This document shows, one piece after another, positions 1,004-20,354 of a stretch of 64,000 nt of DNA. The stretch's first letter is position 1. Every line of letters begins with the position of its first letter. Below the pieces are notes generated by a model, which saw only the letters and a list, made by a program, of their open reading frames with translations, was not told the DNA's origin and did not search any database. The DNA comes from Patescibacteria group bacterium (GTDB lineage: Bacteria > Patescibacteriota > Patescibacteriia > SG8-24 > DYFX01): NCBI GenBank assembly GCA_030583805.1, contig CP129476.1, positions 818,497 through 882,496 on the forward strand, given 5' to 3'. Made by a program: the position numbers and the translations under genes.

Positions 1004-2380
1004 CGCGCGCGCTTTCTTGGCAATCATGGAAAGCGCGAAGGGTGTGACGAACGTCGTCAGAATGACGACGATCACGATGGTTGCGAACAAGCGGTCGTCC
1101 ACGACCCCGAGTCCACGCCCGATATTGGCGAAGATCAGACCAACTTCGCCACGCGGCACCATGCCGACGCCGACGAGCAGGCGATTCATGCCCTTTCCGG
1201 CGGCGAGGCCAGCAACGAGCTTGCCGAACACGGCGATCGCGGTGATGACGAGCGCGACGCCGACGATCTTCACGTCGCCGAAGACCGACAGGTTGACCTG
1301 GAGTCCGGTGTAGACGAAGAAGATCGGAACGAAGAAGCGCGAGATGTCATCGATGAGGTTCTCGACATGCGCGTGCTCCTCGTGTTCGGCGTGCTCTTCC
1401 ATCTCCTTACGGGCTTCCATCTGCGGATGCGAACTGGCCCAGGCGCGCAGACGCGTGACGATGGCCGGGGGCAGGAAGTCCTTGAAGTGCACCGGGTCGA
1501 GCACGAGGCCGGCCGCGAAGGCGCCGACGATCATCGCGAGGCCCATGAGCGAGGCTACGTAGGCGAAGCCTGCGCAAAAGATGAACGCGATGGCCATCTT
1601 CATGCCGTGCCCCGTATGGACCTTCGAGAACAGGGCGCTGATGCGCGGCGAAAGGAACCGGCCGAGCAGGATCGAGCCGCTCAGGAAGGCGAAAGCCTTC
1701 GCGGAGATGACAAGAATCTGCGTCGGATCCAGGGAACCCGTCTTGATGATCGAACTCACGACCGCGAGGATCATGAGGCCGAGCACGTCGTCGATGACGG
1801 CGGCGCCGAGCACGATTTTGGCCTCCGGCGACTTGGATGTGCCGAGATCTTTGAAGACGCGCGCCGTGATGCCGACGGAGGTGGCCGTCAGCGTCGCGCC
1901 GATGAAGAGATAGACGTTCGTCGAGAGTCCCGGCAAGAGCATCTGGCTTGCGAAGAAGCCCGTAGCGAACGGCACGGCGACGCCGATCAAAGCGACAAAC
2001 AGCGCGTTCTTTCCGACCCTGGCCATCTCGCCGATGTTCGACTCGAGGCCCGCGCGAAAGAGCAGCAAGATGACGCCGATTTCGGCGATGTCTTTCACCA
2101 GCGTTTCATGCTTGAGCGTCTCGATCACGCCGAGGCCCGGCACCCACGCCAGCACGCCGAGGAAAACGCCGAGCAGGAGCTCGCCGAGGACGGCCGGCTG
2201 GCCGACGCGCTCCGCCAGCGCACCGATGCGCGCGAAGAGGAGCATTACGGCCAGGAAGAAGAACAGGAGCGGGAAGGTCCCGCCATGGCCGCCTGCGTCA
2301 CTCGCGGCATGCGCCACGGCAGGGGAAAACGCGGCCAGCGCCGCAACGAGCATCGCAACAACTCGCATCATAACCTCCAC
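995..2380 (-). CDS. Cation:proton antiporter (Na+/H+ exchanger, CPA family) with an N-terminal signal peptide and a His/Glu-rich loop.
   Basis: 461-aa polytopic membrane ORF with Na_H exchanger-like TM repeats and a C-terminal GMVPRGEVGLIFA motif. The internal loop EEHAEHEEHAH is His-rich. Confidence 0.8.
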   Translation of the reverse strand: MEVMMRVVAMLVAALAAFSPAVAHAASDAGGHGGTFPLLFFFLAVMLLFARIGALAERVGQPAVLGELLLGVFLGVLAWVPGLGVIETLKHETLVKDIAEIGVILLLFRAGLESNIGEMARVGKNALFVALIGVAVPFATGFFASQMLLPGLSTNVYLFIGATLTATSVGITARVFKDLGTSKSPEAKIVLGAAVIDDVLGLMILAVVSSIIKTGSLDPTQILVISAKAFAFLSGSILLGRFLSPRISALFSKVHTGHGMKMAIAFIFCAGFAYVASLMGLAMIVGAFAAGLVLDPVHFKDFLPPAIVTRLRAWASSHPQMEARKEMEEHAEHEEHAHVENLIDDISRFFVPIFFVYTGLQVNLSVFGDVKIVGVALVITAIAVFGKLVAGLAAGKGMNRLLVGVGMVPRGEVGLIFANIGRGLGVVDDRLFATIVIVVILTTFVTPFALSMIAKKARASA

Positions 2381-6060: not shown

Positions 6061-7578
6061 TTATTCCTGCTTCGGCCGGTATTGCAGCGCTTCGCCGACG
6101 TCCGGCGTTTCGATCCGTTCGCGGTCCGCCAAGTCGGCGATCGTGCGCGCGACTTTGAGACAGCGATGGATGGCGCGCGGGGAAAGGTGAAGCGTCTTGG
6201 ATGCGGCGAGCAGCATCGCCTCGGCCTCGCGCGGTATGGCGCAAACGTTTTTTAAATCGCGTCCGCGGATGTCGGCGTTCGTGATCGCTCCGAAGGCCGC
6301 GTTGCGTTCCGCTTGCCGCACGCGCGCCGCGCTGACGCGTTCGCGGACGATCGAAGACGTTTCGGCTTCGCCGGCCGCCGATAATTTTTCATACGGCGTG
6401 CGCGGCACCTCGACGTACAGGTCGATGCGGTCGAGCAGCGGCCCGGAAATTTTCTTGCGATAGCGTTCGAGCGACGACGGCGTGCACACGCAGGCACGTT
6501 CCGGATCGCCAAAGAATCCGCATGGGCAAGGGTTTCGCGCGGCCACGAGCATGAATGAAGCCGGGAATTCCAAGCTGCCCGAAGCGCGGCTGACCGTGAC
6601 GCGCCGGTCTTCGAGCGGCTGGCGCAAGCCTTCAAGCACCGGCCGCGGGAACTCCGGGAACTCGTCGAGAAACAGCACTCCGCGATGCGCCAGCGTGACT
6701 TCGCCGGGGTGCGGATTCGTGCCGCCGCCGATCACGGCTGCCGTGCTGGCGGTGTGGTGAGGCGCTCTCCAAGGACGCGCCTGCAAAAGAGGTGAGGAAC
6801 GCGGCAGCAGGTGCGCGACGCTGTGAATGCGCGTCGCTTCGAGGGCTTCTTCATACGTCATCCGCGGCAGGATCGAGGGAATGGAGCGCGCCAACAGCGT
6901 TTTGCCGGCGCCCGGACTGCCCGACAAGAGAATATTGTGTCCGCCCGCGGCAGCGATTTCCAACGCGCGTTTCGCTTGCTCCAAGCCCGCGATCGCGGCG
7001 AAGTCGTAACCGCTCTCCGCGGACTCCCATGCCGCAGGAGCCGTGGCCGGCTGCGGCTCCAACAGCTTCTCGCCGCGCAGATGGTCGGCCAGCATCGAAA
7101 GCGTCGGGACGCCGAAGACTTCGAGGCCGGGTACCAAGGCGGCCTCGCTCGCGTTCTCCTTTGGCACGAACACGCGGTTGGTGCCGAGCTTTTTTGCGAG
7201 CAGCGCCGACGCCAAGACGCCCGCGACCGGCCGGAGCGAACCGTCCAGCGCGAGCTCGCCGAGAAACAGCGCGCCACGCACGCTCTCGTAGCTCAATTCG
7301 CCCGAGCCGACCATGATGGATACCGCGATCGGCAGATCGTACGACGGCCCGGCTTTTCGCACGTCGGCAGGAGCCAAGTTCACGGTCAGGCGCGTACGCG
7401 GAAAAGAAAAACCGCTGTTCTTCAGCGCGGTCTTTACGCGGTCGCGCGCTTCTTGCACGGCGGCGTCCGGCAGGCCGACGATCACGAAGGCCGGCAAGCC
7501 ATTGGCCACGTCGGACTCGATCTCGATCGGCGCGGCATCGACGCCGATCAGGGCGGCGGAAAGGATGTTGGCAGACAT
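6061..7578 (-). CDS. comM: YifB/ComM family Mg-chelatase-like AAA+ ATPase.
   Basis: Lon-like N-terminal domain, Walker A GSPGAGKT and a C-terminal ChlI-like region. Start assigned to MSANILSAALIGVD (an internal Met of the 528-aa ORF). Confidence 0.85.
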   Translation of the reverse strand: MSANILSAALIGVDAAPIEIESDVANGLPAFVIVGLPDAAVQEARDRVKTALKNSGFSFPRTRLTVNLAPADVRKAGPSYDLPIAVSIMVGSGELSYESVRGALFLGELALDGSLRPVAGVLASALLAKKLGTNRVFVPKENASEAALVPGLEVFGVPTLSMLADHLRGEKLLEPQPATAPAAWESAESGYDFAAIAGLEQAKRALEIAAAGGHNILLSGSPGAGKTLLARSIPSILPRMTYEEALEATRIHSVAHLLPRSSPLLQARPWRAPHHTASTAAVIGGGTNPHPGEVTLAHRGVLFLDEFPEFPRPVLEGLRQPLEDRRVTVSRASGSLEFPASFMLVAARNPCPCGFFGDPERACVCTPSSLERYRKKISGPLLDRIDLYVEVPRTPYEKLSAAGEAETSSIVRERVSAARVRQAERNAAFGAITNADIRGRDLKNVCAIPREAEAMLLAASKTLHLSPRAIHRCLKVARTIADLADRERIETPDVGEALQYRPKQE

Positions 7579-7622: not shown

Positions 7623-8258
7623 TCAGTCGTGCGGGTTGTAGAGCCACTCGGCCGTTTTGCTTTTCGCGATATCGCCCGGAGTGATGAATTCCATCTGGTA
7701 CAGGAAGTTGGTGCCGGCGTTTTCCTTGAACATGACGCGATCGCGTTTCTCAGGCGCGACGCCCAGGTAGAATGCGCGTTGCGTGAAGCTTGAACAGACG
7801 AAGTTGTCGATGTTGATGATGCGCTGCGCGATCATGTCGCGCACCTTCACGTTCGCGAGTTTGAGCACGATGCGGTTCAGCATGTAGCCGAACAGCCGCG
7901 TGTAGTCGTACGGCGTATCGATTTTATCGAGGAAAAAACCGAGAATGCGTTCGCGCTCTTCATCGGTAATGCCCGGAACGCGCTTCACGCCGATGTCGAA
8001 ATCCTTCTCGTTCAGATAGGAGTGGAGCCGGTGGATTTCGATGCCCTTGTCGAGCGCTTCCACGATCAGGACCTCGGGTTCCTGATCTTTCTGGCGGATG
8101 ACTTCAAAGACCAAGGCGCTGTGATTCCAGTACGAATGGCTCATCTTCCGAATGCCCCTGAGCAGCCAGTTCGCGTGCTTGGTGCGCGTCATGATGATAT
8201 CGGCGACGCGCAGATTGCGGATCGCTTCGCTGCGGTCGGTGTACCGGGCCGCGTCCAT
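7623..8258 (-). CDS. YaeF/YiiX-like permuted papain-fold amidase (NlpC/P60 superfamily), paralog 1.
   Basis: His motif SHSYWNHSALVF upstream of Cys motif NFVCSSFTQRAF, i.e. the permuted His-before-Cys order. Start at MDAARYTD. Confidence 0.6.
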   Translation of the reverse strand: MDAARYTDRSEAIRNLRVADIIMTRTKHANWLLRGIRKMSHSYWNHSALVFEVIRQKDQEPEVLIVEALDKGIEIHRLHSYLNEKDFDIGVKRVPGITDEERERILGFFLDKIDTPYDYTRLFGYMLNRIVLKLANVKVRDMIAQRIINIDNFVCSSFTQRAFYLGVAPEKRDRVMFKENAGTNFLYQMEFITPGDIAKSKTAEWLYNPHD

Positions 8259-10260: not shown

Positions 10261-10626
10261 TTACTCCGTAAACAGTTTTTTGCAGTCGATGCAGGAGGTA
10301 GACGTCGGTCGCGCCATGAGACGCTTCTCGTCGATGACCTTTCCGCAGTATTTGCAAGTTCCGTAGGTTCCGTCCTGAATCCGCTCAAGCGCCTTCTTCA
10401 CGTCGCGAAGCGAGGCTTCCAGCGTGCGTTCAACGGTCAGATCCTTCGAGTACTCTGCAACTTCCGAAGCGTTCTCGTCCTCTTTGTCGCCAAGCTGCGG
10501 AAAGTCCGCATTGAAATCATCAGCGTTCTGAGGATTTCGTTGAGCGAAGCCACCCAGCTCTTCTTCGAGCTTAGCCTTTTCCTCTACCAGCTTCTCTTCA
10601 AGGGTTTTCAGGATGTTCTTGTCCAT
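10261..10626 (-). CDS. dksA: DksA/TraR-family C4 zinc-finger transcription factor.
   Basis: Coiled-coil N-terminus plus CKYCGKVIDEKRLMARPTSTSCIDC. Confidence 0.8.
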   Translation of the reverse strand: MDKNILKTLEEKLVEEKAKLEEELGGFAQRNPQNADDFNADFPQLGDKEDENASEVAEYSKDLTVERTLEASLRDVKKALERIQDGTYGTCKYCGKVIDEKRLMARPTSTSCIDCKKLFTE

Positions 10627-10718
10627 ACTTGGCTAAAAAAACGGGCTTCTGCCTTGCTAGCAGTATAGGGGATTGGTCCGGAGCTGGCAAGGGTTGAACC
10701 CTCCCTAAACAAAAGAAA

Positions 10719-10796
10719 AAGCTCGAGAGCGTGTATGCGGATTTGCCTCAGGACGCCTGTAAAGACGTGCTAGGGCAAATCCGCAATACTCTCGAG
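10719..10796. repeat. Long imperfect inverted repeat (stable hairpin) in a non-coding region.
   Basis: gctcgagagcgtgtatgcggatttgcc ... ggcaaatccgcaatactctcgagc; about 21 paired positions around a 26-nt loop. Confidence 0.5.
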
Positions 10797-11104
10797 CTTC
10801 AGAGTGCCTCGCGTTGAGCCTTCTGTTCGCCGCAGCGATCGAAGGACTAGCCAACGGTGGGCGGAAAGAACAACCTCCCCAACCTTCCAACGGTTCAAAT
10901 CCTCGGGTCAGTGCCGAAGCACGACATAATTGAGGCAGAACCAAGATGCTTTTGATTTTGGTTTTGCAAGGAGAAAAGTAAGGGAGAAGGATGCGCACCC
11001 AAGATGTTCTTCGGTAAGCGTCCTTCAAAGGGTCTTTCCGTATTCAGTTGTCAACGTTCTCTATAACCACTATACCCGAAATTAAGGCTTAGGTCAATCG
11101 GGAT

Positions 11105-11250
11105 GCTGTGGATGGAATTATCGTTAGTAATAAGGCGAAATAAGCTTATTCACTTAAGGCTAAGAGAGACTGTGTACAAAGGTGTGGATTGATTGTGGAT
11201 TGGGCTGAATAACGTTATCCACATTTCGCCTAGTAATATCCACAGACTGT
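11105..11250. promoter_or_regulatory. Cluster of five DnaA-box-like 9-mers with an adjacent AT-rich stretch: candidate oriC or DnaA-regulated region.
   Basis: tgtggatgg (11107), tgtggattg x2 (11184, 11194), TTATCCACA (perfect, 11215) and atatccaca (11236). AT-rich 11119-11168. Confidence 0.4.
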
Positions 11251-14759: not shown

Positions 14760-15368
14760 CTATTCCTCCTCGTCGCTCAGCATTTTGCTGATATTGGGAT
14801 CGACGTCGTCGGCTGTCGGAGCGTTTTTTTGGCTGCGCGTGCCGGTTGCGCGGCCGGTATGGCGGGTCGGGATCAGATAGCGGCCCTGGTCGCGGGAAAG
14901 ATCGATGAAATCATCGGCAACCTCGACCAGTTTGGAGGAAGATGTCTCGCGGAACGCCATGACCTCGGTTTGAACGCCCATGTTTTGAAGGTATTCGACG
15001 AGCGGGATGAAGTCGCCGTCGCCCGAGACAAGGACGACCACGTCGAGTTTGGGGGAGAGGCGGATGGCGTCGACCACCATGCCGACGTCCCAATCCGCTT
15101 TTTTGGCGCCGCCCAGGAACACCTGGACCTCGCGCTCCTTGGTTTCAATGCCGAGCTTGGTGAGAGCGTCGAAGAACGATTGTTCCTCGGGCACGCCGGC
15201 GCGGACGACGTAGGCGATCGCGCGGACGAGGGCGCGGTCGGCGACCGCGGTTTCTACGATATTTCCGAAGTTTACGCGGCAATTGTAGAGGTTCTTCGCC
15301 GAGTAATACATGTTCTGCACGTCGATAAAGACCCCGACACGCTGGCTCCGTTGCTTAATAACGGCCAT
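14760..15368 (-). CDS. NYN/LabA-like domain protein (predicted RNase).
   Basis: VGVFIDVQNMYYSAKN ... LVSGDGDFIPLV ... an acidic C-terminal tail. Confidence 0.75.
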   Translation of the reverse strand: MAVIKQRSQRVGVFIDVQNMYYSAKNLYNCRVNFGNIVETAVADRALVRAIAYVVRAGVPEEQSFFDALTKLGIETKEREVQVFLGGAKKADWDVGMVVDAIRLSPKLDVVVLVSGDGDFIPLVEYLQNMGVQTEVMAFRETSSSKLVEVADDFIDLSRDQGRYLIPTRHTGRATGTRSQKNAPTADDVDPNISKMLSDEEE

Positions 15369-15444
15369 AAAAATAAAGATGCGTATAAAAACCGGAAGCG
15401 CGCCGCATGGAACCCGAAGGCTCTAAACGCGACGCGCTTATCAT

Positions 15445-15705
15445 TTACACTTTGAGTTTCTCGGTCAGCTTCGCGTACTCCTTCGGCATTTCGCGCTGGA
15501 GATAGCGGAGCAACTTGCGGCGCTCGTTGACCTTGCGCAGCAGACCGCGGCGGGACGAGAAGTCCTTCTTGTGCATTTTCAGGTGGTCCGTGAGGTCTTT
15601 GATCTCAGCCGTGAGGATGGCGATCTGGACCTGGGCGGAACCGGTGTCCTGGTCGTGCGTCTTGTACTTCTCGATGATTTTTTCTTTTGCCTTCTTGTCG
15701 AGCAT
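15445..15705 (-). CDS. rpsO: 30S ribosomal protein S15.
   Basis: 86 aa, HKKDFSSRRGLLRKVNERRKLLRYL. Forms the classic rpsO-pnp arrangement. Confidence 0.95.
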   Translation of the reverse strand: MLDKKAKEKIIEKYKTHDQDTGSAQVQIAILTAEIKDLTDHLKMHKKDFSSRRGLLRKVNERRKLLRYLQREMPKEYAKLTEKLKV

Positions 15706-15883
15706 ACATCGTATATAAGCCGGTGCGCCGAGTAGAGGCCCGCTCGAGGGCCGAAACCGAGCTGCGCGGCAGGAGTTAAGTACGCGGGAACACTAACAAA
15801 ATGGAGCAAAGGCGTCAAGTATCACGCGATTTAGCAGCTCCGCTACATTAACATGTAGCTTAAGACTAATTTGACAATTATGT

Positions 15884-15912
15884 GGATAATTCTTGACAAA
15901 ATCTTATGTTTT
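15884..15912 (+). promoter_or_regulatory. Near-consensus sigma70 promoter on the plus strand.
   Basis: TTGACA, a 17-nt spacer and TATCAT; a second TTGACA lies 13 nt upstream. Confidence 0.45.
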
Positions 15913-15920
15913 TGGTATCA

Positions 15921-15990
15921 TTTACACATGGGCATTGCCCAGGGGCTCGCGTAGCGAGCCGGCAGGGCTCGGGGAAACCCGAGTCTTTTG
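15921..15990 (+). ncRNA. Candidate ~65-nt terminated small transcript (two hairpins plus a T-run), convergent on the DUF3800 3' end.
   Basis: ggctcgcgtagcgagcc hairpin, then ctcggggaaacccgag followed by tctttt. Confidence 0.25.
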
Positions 15991-15995
15991 CTATC

Positions 15996-16805
15996 TCAGC
16001 AGTCTTGGCCAAAACAACTGTACTTAATTCCGTGTGTCGGAAGCTTCTCCGCGGGGAGCACTGCATCGATGACTTTTTTGGCGTCAAACAAAGATAGCCA
16101 TGGGCGGTAGCCCGGTTCGTACCCGTGCTTCGCCATAGGATACAGAAAAAGGTCGGCGATCTGGATACCGATGTTTCGCTTCTTTTTTCCTCTTGGGTCA
16201 CCGAGAAGTATTTTCTTAAAATCTGCAGCCGTTAGCGCGCCATATGCAGCAGAATTCGATGGGTTAAAAGGCATTCCGACAGCCTTTAAATCCTTGGAAT
16301 ATTGGATGATCGCCGCGTCTTCGCGCTTTCCACACATTTCGAATCGGATAGCCAGCGTTCCATTGATAGACGAAACATGCTTTACCACTCGCTCAACCAA
16401 AATAGAGAAAGCGGTTTTGCACATCCACCAACGCTTTTCTCCATACAAAGGCTCATATCGAGTATTGTACCCAGGCCGGTGTACAACAGCCGCGAAACCG
16501 AGCGCAGGAAGAGTCTGTATAAAAGTGTTTAGTTCTTTAAGGAATTTGTCAGCGAGAGCATCGTCTTGAAGCCAGGCAAAATCATTGCGTTTACCACGAA
16601 TATCACTGGAGTGAAGAGGGTAATCAATGTTCCATTTTGTACAGAAGCCAAAAAAAGCTTCATGGACTGATGCGATATCGGCTTCGGCAATTAGGACACC
16701 ACCTAATGCAAAATGGTCCATTCCATCAGTTCTCGCCAAAGCAGGCCGTCGATCAGGAAAGCGACTGCCCGAGTCATCGATATACAGCAAGTGCGTAGCA
16801 CCCAT
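15996..16805 (-). CDS. DUF3800-family protein (predicted RNase H-like fold). Low-GC gene, probably acquired.
   Basis: N-terminal LLYIDDSGS motif. About 48% GC against about 63% in the flanks. Confidence 0.65.
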   Translation of the reverse strand: MGATHLLYIDDSGSRFPDRRPALARTDGMDHFALGGVLIAEADIASVHEAFFGFCTKWNIDYPLHSSDIRGKRNDFAWLQDDALADKFLKELNTFIQTLPALGFAAVVHRPGYNTRYEPLYGEKRWWMCKTAFSILVERVVKHVSSINGTLAIRFEMCGKREDAAIIQYSKDLKAVGMPFNPSNSAAYGALTAADFKKILLGDPRGKKKRNIGIQIADLFLYPMAKHGYEPGYRPWLSLFDAKKVIDAVLPAEKLPTHGIKYSCFGQDC

Positions 16806-16878
16806 ATTGCAGGCACCTTAGCTAATATAGAAAATCGTCACAAGTCTCGGTATTTTTCCTCTTACATAAAAAGAAGCC

Positions 16879-17454
16879 CTAGGCGGGCTTCGGAAAAAAG
16901 TGGCGGTCGTGCACGAGACCGGCGCGGCGCTCCCAGAAGGCGCGGCCTGGAATGTATTCGCGTCGTCGCGGCTCGTAGGTCTTGTGCTCGCGCCAGCTCT
17001 TGATGAGATCGACGGTCATCTCTCCCATGGCGGTGCCTTTCGGAGAAGTTGCGGCGATGACACTGGCTTCATGCGGCTCCTTCCAAGCGCGCACGCGTTC
17101 GACGAGCGAGCCGGAACGACAGGTATCGTTCAGGACTAATGTCGGACCTCGGCGCTCTTTAAGGATGCGCTCAAGTCCGTCATAGCCCAGCGTATGCCAG
17201 ACTTTCTTGTTCACCTTGCCGTAGTACCAGCCGTCGTCCCAGCCATGGCCGATATACGCGAGCAAGAACGGCTGACGTTCGGCGCGCGTGGCGTGGATCG
17301 CGATGACCGACCGGAGGTCGTCCGCATCGCGATGGGCGGCGAGGATGCCGACGACGTATCGAATGCGGCACACGCGTTTCAGAAAATCGATCAATGACCG
17401 ACCAGGAGCACTGAAGCAACTGTGATGGCCCATGATGACCATGGCACTTTTCAT
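16879..17454 (-). CDS. Minimal caspase/metacaspase-like (clan CD, C14-like) peptidase domain protein.
   Basis: His-Gly motif LLAYIGHGW and Cys motif LVLNDTCRSGS (compare metacaspase YSGHG / DSCHSG); 191 aa. Confidence 0.5.
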   Translation of the reverse strand: MKSAMVIMGHHSCFSAPGRSLIDFLKRVCRIRYVVGILAAHRDADDLRSVIAIHATRAERQPFLLAYIGHGWDDGWYYGKVNKKVWHTLGYDGLERILKERRGPTLVLNDTCRSGSLVERVRAWKEPHEASVIAATSPKGTAMGEMTVDLIKSWREHKTYEPRRREYIPGRAFWERRAGLVHDRHFFPKPA

Positions 17455-17515
17455 GCGTCCTCCTTTGCAAGGACACGTGACGTATATGAAAAAACCGCCC
17501 TTGTGTCAAGGACGG

Positions 17516-18214
17516 TCAGACGGGATCTCGCTTCTTCAGGAAGTTCGGGCCGTGGCCGAGCGTGCTGATCGGCACGTTCTGCGCGCAGAGCGGGCAATCG
17601 ACTCGTGTCCAGGCGGCAAGCTCTTCGTCGTGCAACGAGACGATGGGAACAAGCTTGTGTCGCGCGTTCGGTTGCATGAGTGCCGTGATCGAACCGCGAT
17701 TCCAGATCGCCCCGATCGCGACAACCTCTCCTCCAGCAGCGGTGATGAGCTGCATCAAGCGCGTCGACGTCGACGCGCGGTTCACGATGTCCTCGGCGAC
17801 AACGACGGTGCGGCCGCGCACGGCCAACTCGAAACCGCGATGCAGATACAGCTGCGACGGATCCTCCCCGCGATGGGGGTCGCCGTCTTCGGCGTAGATC
17901 GAGATGACGGGGCGCTCCGGTTTCCAAAGGTGGTTGGCCACCAGATGCGACATCTTGATGCCGCTCATGGCTGCTCCAACCACGGCTTCGATCGGGCGGC
18001 CGCTGAGGGCTTCCTCGAGCTTGATCGCGATCGATTCGCCGAAGTGTTCGGCGCGCCTCGGATCGGAAAGAACGATGTCTTTGTTGAGATACGTATCGCC
18101 GTGCTTGCCGCTCGCGTAGACGAAGTGTCCGTCGCGCACGATGCATCCGGCGTTCTCGAACGCGGTGCGAACATCCTCACTGCTCATCGGTCTGCGCATC
18201 GGGCGCTCCTTCAA
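17516..18214 (-). CDS. Type I phosphoribosyltransferase (orotate-PRTase-like).
   Basis: PRPP-binding motif VVVAEDIVNRASTSTRL and an OPRT-like hood FVYASGKHGDTYLNKD. Confidence 0.7.
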   Translation of the reverse strand: MKERPMRRPMSSEDVRTAFENAGCIVRDGHFVYASGKHGDTYLNKDIVLSDPRRAEHFGESIAIKLEEALSGRPIEAVVGAAMSGIKMSHLVANHLWKPERPVISIYAEDGDPHRGEDPSQLYLHRGFELAVRGRTVVVAEDIVNRASTSTRLMQLITAAGGEVVAIGAIWNRGSITALMQPNARHKLVPIVSLHDEELAAWTRVDCPLCAQNVPISTLGHGPNFLKKRDPV

Positions 18215-18290
18215 GGTTCTGGTTTCGGACAGCCGCCATGGTACTCGAAAAGGGGTTTCTTCGGTAGGGTGCGCGATAAAAGAAAAAGTC

Positions 18291-19046
18291 CTACGGGTGT
18301 AGGACCTCAGGAAGTACCGTACCGGACGGCATCACGACAGGATGCTGTTCGAAGAACTCCTTGAGCTGCGCGTGATTGAGCTTGCGCTCGCGTCCCCGCA
18401 CCGGCTGCTGCATGAGGAGGTTGGCGAGCTGCGCGAGCGTTTCGCGGTTCAGCTTCGCGATCGCAAGCGTCTCGGCGTACAGCTGTTCGCGGTAGGAGAC
18501 GATGTGCCCCTTGACCATGCAGGTCTCGCCGATGAGATCGCTCTCGGGGCACGCGCCGCATTGGCTGCCGTCGCCGTTGCCGCAGTACTTGAGAAGCTCG
18601 TCGCCGACCATGTCCTTGTCTGAGTAGTCCTGCTGCGGCTTGGTGCCGAAGACGGCCTCTTCCGCGGCGGCGCCGCCCAGGTAATACATGGCGTCGGCCT
18701 TCGTGAGCTCCTCCGGATACAGGAGATAGACCGCGGGGGCCTGTCCAGCATGCGTGAGACCGAGCGTGCCGTTCGCCTCGTCGTATTCGACGTACACCAG
18801 AATGTCTTCAAGCGGACGCTCCGGCATGACGGCGACGCTGAGGAGCGCGTGGCCGGCCTCGTGGATCGCGGTGACGTTCTGTTCCTCGGTCGTGCGCTTC
18901 TTGTACTTCGTCTCGGAAGACGAATCGTCGCTATGAATGAGGAGCATGATCGTCAGGATCGCCATCACGCAGGCGAGGATCAGTACCAAGCTCACGTGAA
19001 CGAACGTGACGGAGAGCGGTTCTCGGCCCTGTCGTGCGTCGGACAT
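18291..19046 (-). CDS. Membrane-anchored M41-like (FtsH protease-domain) zinc metallopeptidase lacking an AAA module.
   Basis: N-terminal TM, then AIHEAGHAL (HEXXH) and a downstream Asp-rich region. No Walker motifs. Confidence 0.6.
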   Translation of the reverse strand: MSDARQGREPLSVTFVHVSLVLILACVMAILTIMLLIHSDDSSSETKYKKRTTEEQNVTAIHEAGHALLSVAVMPERPLEDILVYVEYDEANGTLGLTHAGQAPAVYLLYPEELTKADAMYYLGGAAAEEAVFGTKPQQDYSDKDMVGDELLKYCGNGDGSQCGACPESDLIGETCMVKGHIVSYREQLYAETLAIAKLNRETLAQLANLLMQQPVRGRERKLNHAQLKEFFEQHPVVMPSGTVLPEVLHP

Positions 19047-19183
19047 ATGTACCTCCTTGTCCGTCGGTGCGGCGGGATGCCTCTCTTGACGCTATCAATC
19101 ACGCACGCCTCGGTCAAACGGAAGAAGTGTCGTACAATAAGAAAAGAGGCCCTGTGAGAGGCCTCCGAGAGAGAAAGAACATT

Positions 19184-20227
19184 TCATTGTCGCAGGCTTT
19201 GGTGGTAGCGAACGCTTCCCATCGATTGCTCGACGATTTTCGAACGCACGTAGTCCCACTGCCGTTCGAGCGCGGCGTCGTCACAGACTTCGCCATTGCT
19301 CTTACGGAACCAGCTCTGCGCGCCGTCGTCAGCCGTTTTCAACTCGCATGCCTGCCAGTCGAAGATGGCGTTCCATCGGCTGAGCGCCTTGGCGTAGTAC
19401 ACGCCGCCGGGATCCCTGCCGTAGTAGCTGCTGATGGCTCGGCGCCAGGCAGGCACTCCGTGCGCGTGCCCCTTCTTGAGGGCTCGTTCGTACCGGGCGA
19501 CGATGTCTTGCGCGGCGATGATGGCACCACCGCAAAAGGTGAGAGGATCGAGATCCTGCTCGACGGCCCAGTCGACCACTTCGGCGCCCGAGAATTGGAA
19601 CGGTCCGCAGCATCCTCCGTAGCCGTACGTCTTCTTCCCGATCACCTCGTTGGTGTCCGGGTCGATCACGTCGACGATCTTCGGGCACGAACACGTCATG
19701 CGTTCCAGATTCTCGCCGTAGACCTGCTTCCAGCCGAACTTCTCGGCCATCCGCAGCATGCCGATGCGGTGTTTGGTGCCTGCGGCGCCGTCGCGGCGAG
19801 CAAGCTCCTTCATCACATTGCACTTGCCGGAACCCTTTCCGTTGCCGTCGACGTGGCCTGTCTCGATGCGCCAGATGGCGTATAAGACTTCGACGGGCGT
19901 GCAGATCGTGACACCCTTGATCACGCGACAGCTTTTCTTGCTGGCGAGGGTCAAGATGTCGAGGATCTGTTCCGGGTGCTCGACCGTGTCGTAGCCCGCA
20001 CAGATCCCGGCTTGGGGACGCGCTGGCACGTACAGATCGGGCGCCTCGACGGTATTGGAGATGGACATGTGCGCGTCGATCCTGCCTGTCCCATGCGCAG
20101 TGCCCTGCTTGTTCTGAGGACGCGTCATGGAACGGGCGGGGAGAGGCTCCTCCTTGTCCTTGAATGGGCCTTCGATCAGGAAGATCCCGATCGTGCATAG
20201 AAGAATGCAGATCGAGAATCCAGCCAT
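19184..20227 (-). CDS. Secreted/membrane-anchored lysozyme-like (lytic-transglycosylase-like) protein.
   Basis: TM start at MAGFSICILLC. WRIETGH (candidate catalytic Glu) and GCCGPFQF (compare GLMQI). Cys-rich. Confidence 0.35.
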   Translation of the reverse strand: MAGFSICILLCTIGIFLIEGPFKDKEEPLPARSMTRPQNKQGTAHGTGRIDAHMSISNTVEAPDLYVPARPQAGICAGYDTVEHPEQILDILTLASKKSCRVIKGVTICTPVEVLYAIWRIETGHVDGNGKGSGKCNVMKELARRDGAAGTKHRIGMLRMAEKFGWKQVYGENLERMTCSCPKIVDVIDPDTNEVIGKKTYGYGGCCGPFQFSGAEVVDWAVEQDLDPLTFCGGAIIAAQDIVARYERALKKGHAHGVPAWRRAISSYYGRDPGGVYYAKALSRWNAIFDWQACELKTADDGAQSWFRKSNGEVCDDAALERQWDYVRSKIVEQSMGSVRYHQSLRQ

Positions 20228-20354
20228 CCAGTCTTTCAAAGGAAACTCCTGGGTTGTGGGCGGTTCCGGACGCCCAAGAGAAAGAAAAAAGATCTTTCCC
20301 GGAACGGCCAATCTTAGCAGAAAAGCAGGATTCTGTCAATACATTCTGACAACT

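Follow-up and report, generated by a model that had tools for sequence, protein, structure and literature searches.

The subject of this analysis is a 64,000-nucleotide stretch of DNA from a Patescibacteria group bacterium (assembly GCA_030583805.1, contig CP129476.1, positions 818,497 to 882,496 of the forward strand), hereafter the window. It belongs to a metagenome-assembled genome, on a contig of 1.17 Mb. Three consecutive open reading frames (ORFs) on its minus strand encode a DUF3800 protein, a caspase-like protein and a phosphoribosyltransferase (PRTase). This arrangement had been reported in a preliminary description and was confirmed here, all three genes being present and correctly identified. 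That description left two readings side by side: a single defence or abortive-infection module working without a reverse transcriptase (RT), into which a clan-CD protease had been inserted, or a housekeeping PRTase whose co-location with the other two genes is coincidental. We consider it likely that the locus holds three independent units in a hypervariable interval, namely a divergent PyrE-type PRTase, a clan-CD peptidase and a separately inserted cassette in which the DUF3800 gene is accompanied by a small RNA (sRNA) gene. The three genes and two of the hairpins at their ends are:

15996-16805, minus strand: DUF3800 protein, 269 aa, predicted RNase H2-like nuclease
16873-16891, minus strand: hairpin resembling a terminator, which overlaps the stop codon at the end of the caspase-like gene and is conserved in relatives
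16879-17454, minus strand: minimal caspase/hemoglobinase-fold protein, 191 aa, with an intact His70-Cys112 dyad
17493-17517, minus strand: terminator-like hairpin and U-run directly 3' of the PRTase stop codon, an 11-bp stem followed by TTTTTCATAT
17516-18199, minus strand: PRTase of divergent PyrE type, resembling the Thermus-type orotate phosphoribosyltransferase (OPRT), 227 aa from the deposited ATG

An upstream TTG at 18214, the boundary adopted in the preliminary description, is an alternative start that extends the PRTase ORF. The neighbours within ~5 kb are pnp, a NYN gene, rpsO, an M41-like gene, the gene of a 375-aa protein with no Pfam match, and the gene of an Xer-type recombinase.

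From the Xer-type recombinase gene to rpsO: a hypervariable interval

Relatives of the window share a gene order that runs from the Xer-type recombinase through an unknown protein, an M41-like or Exo_endo_phos gene, in some cases pyrF, the PRTase and the caspase-like gene to a slot, which is followed by rpsO, NYN and pnp. This slot, with the caspase-like gene on one side and rpsO on the other, is filled differently even in close relatives, in which pnp, NYN and Xer proteins show 83-98% identity (comparison loci carry L numbers):

L003/L004 and L009: empty
L005: HATPase_c/DUF4325 gene
L191: second, long caspase-like paralog and HATPase_c/DUF4325 gene
L001: PaaX_M/Cas2-like gene and MBL-fold gene
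L019: 125-aa ORF
Window and L011: DUF3800 gene (these two only)

A PADLOC search of this cargo gave only a weak Cas2-like match, to one 161-aa protein, which is too little for us to describe the slot as a hotspot of defence genes. The whole interval from the recombinase gene to rpsO (16841-20311 in the window) is hypervariable across the window, L001, L003, L005, L009, L010, L019 and L191. Its 375-aa, M41-like, PRTase and caspase-like proteins are only 28-43% identical between lineages, as against the 83-98% of pnp, NYN and Xer, and its gene content is mosaic, with either an M41-like or an Exo_endo_phos gene, with or without pyrF, and with three types of PRTase.

Several observations separate the three genes from one another. 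Each has its own terminator-like hairpin at its 3' end. The caspase-like gene occurs without the PRTase in L001, L017 and L018, the PRTase occurs beside a mere stub of the caspase-like gene in L010, and DUF3800 is missing from the closest relatives, L009 and L010, whose Xer proteins are 96-98% identical to that of the window. When 84 loci of the DUF3800 subfamily (439 kb) were searched by tblastn, no PRTase was found, and a caspase-like homolog was found in L011 alone, which shares the insertion site of the window; DUF3800 and the caspase-like gene thus stand together only at one lineage-specific insertion site. Among 99 immediate DUF3800 neighbours, no Pfam family was seen more than three times. 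Two points weigh against complete independence: the PRTase and caspase-like genes are adjacent in six related contexts, so that a functional link of those two is possible, and the loci compared for synteny all come from one narrow lineage.

The phosphoribosyltransferase, the caspase-like protein and their surroundings

A match to Pfam Pribosyltran agrees with the earlier assignment of the PRTase to the type I enzymes. Its best NCBIfam match is TIGR01367 (pyrE_Therm), which covers the full length at 107.6 bits and falls short of the cut-off of 150.25, and its nearest solved structure is an OPRT (PDB 4paw, E 1e-15). The same model is the top match for all PRTases of the lineage (79-110 bits), including those beside pyrF, so that the protein of the window is no less PyrE-like than these; the control OPRTs P0212 and P0183 scored 200-237 bits. 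The pyrF genes adjoining the PRTase in L003 and L005 reach 200-210 bits with PRK00230, above its equivalog cut-off of 193, while the adjoining gene in L019 and L191 carries the Pfam domain OMPdecase. Since the PRTase of the window is as PyrE-like as those beside bona fide pyrF genes, homology identifies it as a divergent PyrE-type OPRT homolog, which presumably still converts orotate to orotidine monophosphate. With Thermus/Helicobacter-type OPRTs (TIGR01367; 4paw) it shares full-length homology, the acidic pair of the phosphoribosyl pyrophosphate (PRPP) loop, a C-terminal CPLC motif and, in sister lineages, adjacency to pyrF. It differs from them in an insertion of ~15 residues before the RRGF motif, in the PRPP loop, in its sub-cut-off score and in the lack of pyrF in the window.

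Some of these differences count against a PyrE assignment. No pyrF was found in the 64-kb window, in L009 or in L010. The PRPP loop reads EDIVNRASTS as compared with EDV(V/I)TTGGS, keeping the acidic E-D pair and losing the glycine; in place of TTGG, the window clade has NRAS, L003 has NTGG and L005 has NTAG. The equivalog cut-off was missed, and the three PRTase types, with 32-38% mutual identity, occur in a lineage whose core proteins (pnp, NYN, Xer) are 83-98% identical, a divergence unusual for a housekeeping enzyme. The ratio of nonsynonymous to synonymous substitution rates (dN/dS) is 0.16-0.19 for the PRTase and 0.015-0.076 for core genes, indicating purifying but relaxed selection. On balance, pyrF adjacency in sister lineages and the lack of co-occurrence elsewhere favour the alternative that the preliminary description had raised, a PRTase of the pyrimidine-salvage type co-located by coincidence, although the enzyme does not cluster tightly with canonical PyrE.

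The 191-aa protein had no match in Pfam, NCBIfam, PADLOC, PHROGs or PDB sequences, but has the caspase-like alpha/beta fold of clan CD. His70, within a YxGHG motif, follows the core strand at 63-68, and Cys112, within NDxC, follows the core strand at 105-110. A profile search of 1.84 billion representatives revealed 287 clusters of this family at E<=1e-3; among the matches listed, almost all are short, roughly 120-300 aa. In 77 diverse members G69, H70, C112, W154 and G179 are invariant, and the family signature is LLxxYxGHG ... (I/V)xNDCC(H/Y) ... RWGxxLDHxFFP. Curated clan-CD models (Pfam C14, C13, C25 and CHAT) did not capture the family at threshold. Single members match Pfam weakly, Peptidase_C25 in 31 of the 77, Raptor_N in 15 and Peptidase_C14 in 10 (best E 2e-6), while the family profile reaches the caspase-like domain of Raptor, GSU0716 and metacaspase-4 at E 4e-4 to 3e-3. 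In the Raptor alignment, the single profile alignment in which the catalytic columns were inspected, the GHG of the family falls on the GHG of Raptor and the catalytic cysteine column on a serine. Because of these weak member matches and the reach of the profile, we regard the proteins as a clan-CD family without a Pfam model at threshold. Fold, invariant His-Cys dyad and profile matches together uphold the caspase-like assignment first made from the sequence alone: the protein is a clan-CD caspase-fold protein with a His70/Cys112 dyad. No signal peptide is evident by eye, and the protein would be an active stand-alone cytoplasmic cysteine peptidase.

As compared with metacaspases and orthocaspases (C14), legumain and GPI8 (C13), gingipains (C25) and Raptor, the protein is only 191 aa long and lacks a prodomain, a p20/p10 linker and a partner domain, and the C-terminal RWGxxLDHxFFP motif is specific to its family. 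With about 290 clusters and an intact dyad, these proteins of ~190 aa may be among the smallest natural caspase-fold scaffolds. The family comes from metagenomes only, Patescibacteria being the sole named sources, where it is possibly a conflict-related protease. The genomic contexts covered for the wider family are those of L017 and L018 (a contig scan gave four loci, three of them already known). Between loci the caspase-like gene is 36-66% identical, with a dN/dS of 0.30. In L191 a second, longer paralog (247 aa; 6646-7389) stands in tandem with the short one, and in L010 only a C-terminal stub (7685-7971; ...RLFSPPNGWGAELDHLFFPKPS*) is left, which points to duplication and decay of the family among close relatives. 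The terminator of the gene, GCCCGCCTAGGGC(T/G)TCTTTT, is also found in L009, L010 and L011.

The PRTase and the caspase-like protein might form a two-gene unit, for example one in which, as in conflict systems, a nucleotide signal or effector derived from the PRTase is coupled to the protease. Such a unit would fit their adjacency in the window, L003/L004, L005/L006, L009, L019 and L191, the altered PRPP loop and missing pyrF of the window clade, and a divergence (32-36% identity for the PRTase, 36-39% for the caspase-like protein) far faster than that of core genes (83-94%). Against it, one gene is found without the other in L001, L010, L017 and L018, a terminator lies between them, the PRTase stands beside pyrF in four contexts, and the co-occurrences all come from one lineage with shared synteny. 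In addition, the types of the two genes assort independently, as in L191, where the PRTase is of the L003 type and the caspase-like gene of the window type; this speaks against co-evolution of the pair. We consider a two-gene unit unlikely, and take the two as separate genes.

Three further features of the surroundings were observed. The M41-like gene (18291-19046, minus strand) encodes a 251-aa protein with an N-terminal hydrophobic, transmembrane-like segment and a HEAGH motif. Its similarity to FtsH is confined to the protease half (Peptidase_M41, 32 bits), and an AAA domain is absent; the gene evolves fast, and in relatives an Exo_endo_phos gene may take its place. The NYN-domain (LabA-like) gene (14760-15368, minus strand) lies between rpsO and pnp in all relatives; its product matches the PADLOC NYN model (E 1.7e-16), and the gene appears to belong to the core of the lineage and not to defence. 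A low-GC (46-51%) gap of ~600 nt at 10627-11229 has as its sole ORF a weak one of 107 aa; it is bordered by a zinc-finger gene of the dksA/traR type (10261-10626) and by the gene of a 401-aa protein. L003 and L010 have a gap of similar size at the same place. The gap of the window, in which Rfam finds no match, might hold an undescribed RNA.

The DUF3800 cassette and its predicted small RNA

The DUF3800 gene lies within an insert that also carries an sRNA gene on the opposite strand:

15816-16848, no strand: low-GC insert of ~1.02 kb (DUF3800 and sRNA genes) with flanking 8-bp direct repeats
15893-15921, plus strand: sigma-70-like sRNA promoter (TTGACA, 17 nt, TATCAT, with a TG extension; 11/12 matches)
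15927-15992, plus strand: predicted sRNA gene, ~65 nt, convergent with DUF3800 (covariance-model core 15926-15966)
15929-15941, plus strand: sRNA hairpin P3'
15944-15960, plus strand: sRNA hairpin P2'
15961-15989, plus strand: terminator hairpin and U-run of the sRNA

The protein matches the DUF3800 model of Pfam (PF12686) at 37.9 bits against a cut-off of 21 and has the N-terminal D-D/E and C-terminal QxxD motifs of that family; its best structural matches are RNase H2 and RNase H3. The gene has a GC content of 47.5%, which places it in the lowest 0.5% of 810-bp windows across the 64 kb, and its GC content at third codon positions is 45.6% as compared with 72-84% in its neighbours, so that the contrast noted in the preliminary description is real. 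The direct repeats, whose borders were read from the sequences by eye, are GAGACTTG at 16848-16841 and GATACTTG at 15823-15816 when read on the minus strand. The corresponding empty site, CCAAGACTTGACG, is the −35 region of the rpsO promoter and is intact in L009, L010 and L003. L011 contains the same insert with a perfect AAGACTTG on both sides and a DUF3800 protein 83-84% identical to that of the window, despite a caspase-like gene just 35% identical. The flanking repeats, the intact empty site and the copy in L011 indicate a discrete cassette inserted with an 8-bp duplication, and together with the compositional contrast they support the separate acquisition of DUF3800 that had been proposed from base composition.

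Homologs of the DUF3800 gene occupy other settings. In L012/L013 (1524-11214), a homolog 61% identical to that of the window lies, with the sRNA motif, inside a type I restriction-modification operon (hsdM, NYN, unknown, hsdS, DUF3800, insertion sequence, hsdR) with Fic and RadC genes beside it. In L012 the start codon of DUF3800 overlaps the hsdS stop, and in L007 the ORF follows an amidase gene, its start likewise overlapping the upstream stop. L008, from an Adlerbacteria genome, has a homolog near Xer, rpsO and pnp. At one metagenomic locus, L030, a LOOT RNA (RF03000, 67.7 bits; 1139-1260, minus strand) lies ~2.7 kb from the DUF3800 gene.

The cassette could be a selfish mobile element, with DUF3800 as transposase or recombinase and the RNA as an end structure or as a guide resembling the bridge RNA of IS110. 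The structural matches, to RNases H2 and H3 and not to transposases, argue otherwise, as do the overlaps with upstream stop codons in L012 and L007, which leave no room for a 5' element end. No terminal inverted repeats are evident, and a single insertion site is comparable with its empty site. A selfish element, as opposed to a defence or toxin-antitoxin-like module, therefore appears improbable.

The sRNA was recognized when the flanks of five DUF3800 loci were compared, revealing a conserved hairpin element directly 3' of the stop codon; a metagenome scan then added 79 loci. A covariance model, R1, of 42 positions and 11 pairs gave 53.8 bits for the sRNA of the window. A search of 490 kb with R1 produced 63 matches at E<=1e-3 and no others below E 0.003; each of the 63 lies just 3' of a DUF3800 ORF, and their orientation relative to it is constant. 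Of 65 loci with a DUF3800 of 45% identity or more and 150 nt of downstream sequence, 61 have the motif, as compared with one of 16 loci below 45% identity. Compensatory changes were found in eight of the 11 pairs: a P2 pair is UA in 35 sequences and CG in 20 with none unpaired, a further pair is CG in 29, UA in 16 and GC in 9, and a P3 pair is GC in 44 and AU in 11. None of 500 shuffles reached the observed covariation score, sliding the pair partners reduced pairing from 91% to 26-47%, and the seed alignment, which is not model-fitted, showed the same pattern. The RNA of the window is predicted to fold with a minimum free energy of −40.8 kcal/mol (z −5.2).

Three lines of evidence, G-U pairs, promoter and terminator, place the RNA on the strand opposite DUF3800. 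A C-A mismatch on the DUF3800 strand in 48 of 55 sequences is a U-G pair on the opposite strand. When the model-fitted alignment A9 was complemented for comparison of the strands (603 pair cells), pairs were canonical in 99.8% of cells on the sRNA strand and in 91.2% on the DUF3800 strand. A −10-like hexamer precedes the motif by 4-7 nt in ~46 of 58 distinct loci (a manual count), often with a TTGACA-like −35 box. At the other end, in the sRNA orientation, a third hairpin and then a U-run abut the DUF3800 stop codon. The hairpins might instead be a 3' untranslated or terminator element of the DUF3800 mRNA: they begin right after its stop codon, it was on the sense strand that they were first noticed, and the first of them, with flanking A and U runs, would be able to terminate in both directions. 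The poorer pairing on the sense strand, promoter boxes and a U-run that fit the antisense orientation only, and the motif in phage contigs that lack DUF3800 make this very unlikely, and we take the element to be a separate antisense sRNA gene. A small peptide encoded by the motif was ruled out, because the hairpin loops, and P2 through extension of its helix, vary in length by non-multiples of three and the stems covary. Complementarity of the sRNA to the 8-bp target repeat was also considered and rejected, the match being 6 nt in the window and none in L011.

At the gathering threshold Rfam finds only two tRNAs in the 64-kb window, and a scan of 15300-18400 at E<=10 gave nothing. The Rfam models DUF3800-I to -XI, among them RF02969 (DUF3800-I), RF02968 (DUF3800-IX) and RF02975 (DUF3800-XI), gave no match when the window and 20 loci were searched at the gathering threshold. 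Below it, the best match, to DUF3800-XI, reached 13.1 bits against a gathering score of 37.8 and covers one hairpin on the same strand, possibly reflecting a distant relation. We class the predicted RNA as a new member, absent from Rfam, of the known kind of DUF3800-associated RNAs, a comparison made through the models of Rfam 15.

Copies of the motif also occur alone in phages. To find them, viral contigs were first scanned for a pattern and the results then scored with R1, so that the E-values are inflated by the pre-selection; the extra hairpin and the flanks of these copies lay outside the search pattern. Strong copies of 47.4 bits in L102 (11897-11938) and L109 (1812-1853) and of 38.5 bits in L149 (1571-1611) have no DUF3800 homolog. 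In L102 and L109 the copy has a Mu-like portal gene on one side and a Mu-like (prohead) protease gene on the other and points the same way as the phage genes; that of L102 may overlap an ORF of 27 codons. These copies could be decoys, or the motif could have another role.

The following model would account for these features. The −35 region of the rpsO promoter received DUF3800 in a separate insertion, as a discrete cassette of ~1 kb with two convergent genes, one for an RNase H2-like DUF3800 nuclease and one for a predicted structured sRNA of ~65 nt. The two would most likely work as a pair, the RNA binding the nuclease and either restraining or directing it. The cassette would be an accessory, mobile and probably conflict-related module, akin to those of the eleven known classes of DUF3800-associated RNA, and would neither need nor involve the neighbouring PRTase or caspase-like genes. 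Our best guess is an RNA-controlled RNase H-like nuclease that serves as an accessory conflict module. The fuller proposal, of a self-contained mobile two-component system whose RNA controls or directs the nuclease and is neutralised by phage-borne decoys, is put forward tentatively and is itself rather doubtful; such a system could be toxin-antitoxin-like, abortive-infection-like or RNA-guided. It is a weakness of the model that expression of the sRNA gene is predicted from its own promoter and terminator, and that binding or regulation of DUF3800 by the RNA is suggested by their co-occurrence. If the proposal of an RNA-controlled nuclease and phage decoys is true, it would provide a first mechanistic handle on RNAs unexplained since 2017. 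The sRNA, with more than 60 instances, a fixed geometry and solo copies in phages, is a clean new DUF3800-associated RNA, and with its nuclease gene it makes up a 1-kb cassette open to direct cloning and testing.

Comparison with known systems

The preliminary description had taken PRTase and DUF3800 as the accessory pair of type III retrons. This premise was mistaken: in the classification of Mestre et al. (2020, PMC7736814), the partner of the PRTase-like protein in type III is a winged-helix protein, and it is type VII that DUF3800 defines. The locus shares with retron types III and VII a PRTase-fold and a DUF3800 protein, each known as a retron accessory protein, but the PRTase here is of PyrE type and has no winged-helix gene beside it. 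The absence of an RT and of an msr/msd-like element, noted at the outset, agrees with the lack of an RT domain among the neighbours within ~5 kb and with the Rfam result of two tRNAs only. RT families are likewise missing from the 25 listed Pfam families of the 99 DUF3800-subfamily neighbours, and the sRNA of the window is without retron-like features. The DUF3800 protein of type VII retrons was modelled as RNase H2-like and lacks the QxxD motif (Mestre et al. 2020, PMC7736814), which that of the window keeps. Of the proteins compared with PADLOC-DB 2.0, neither the three considered here nor the M41-like and 375-aa proteins matched a model (the PRTase at E<=0.01), only the NYN protein beside rpsO doing so. 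PHROGs likewise gave no match to any of the three.

These comparisons bear on whether the three genes could belong to a single RT-independent module of the PRTase/DUF3800 type, serving defence or abortive infection and interrupted by a clan-CD protease gene. Although the genes are adjacent on one strand, the PRTase and caspase-like gene evolve fast, and DUF3800 homologs occur in defence contexts (the restriction-modification operon of L012, and beside PtuA/AriA-like ATPases and CapP), such a module is extremely improbable given a terminator for each gene, closest relatives without DUF3800, 84 other DUF3800 loci with no PRTase and a caspase-like gene in L011 only, no PADLOC match and a mistaken literature premise. 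One three-gene defence system is not supported; the genes are most likely unrelated neighbours, and an RT-less retron-like module can be dropped.

The closest parallels concern the cassette. Structured RNAs associated with DUF3800 genes were described in eleven classes, DUF3800-I to -XI, of unknown function (Weinberg et al. 2017, PMC5737381). Like them, the sRNA described here is a small covarying RNA encoded beside DUF3800, has a Rho-independent terminator at its end and is tied to a subset of DUF3800 genes. It differs in being the fixed convergent partner that abuts the stop codon of one DUF3800 subfamily, in matching no Rfam model and in occurring alone in phage contigs.

A functional analogy may be drawn with type III toxin-antitoxin systems of the ToxIN kind. 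In contrast to ToxIN, the RNA of the cassette does not consist of tandem repeats, its gene converges with the nuclease gene and does not lie upstream of it, and DUF3800 is unrelated to ToxN. Common to both is a nuclease gene paired with a dedicated structured small RNA, and the phage-borne solo copies of the motif would parallel the pseudo-ToxI of escape phages.

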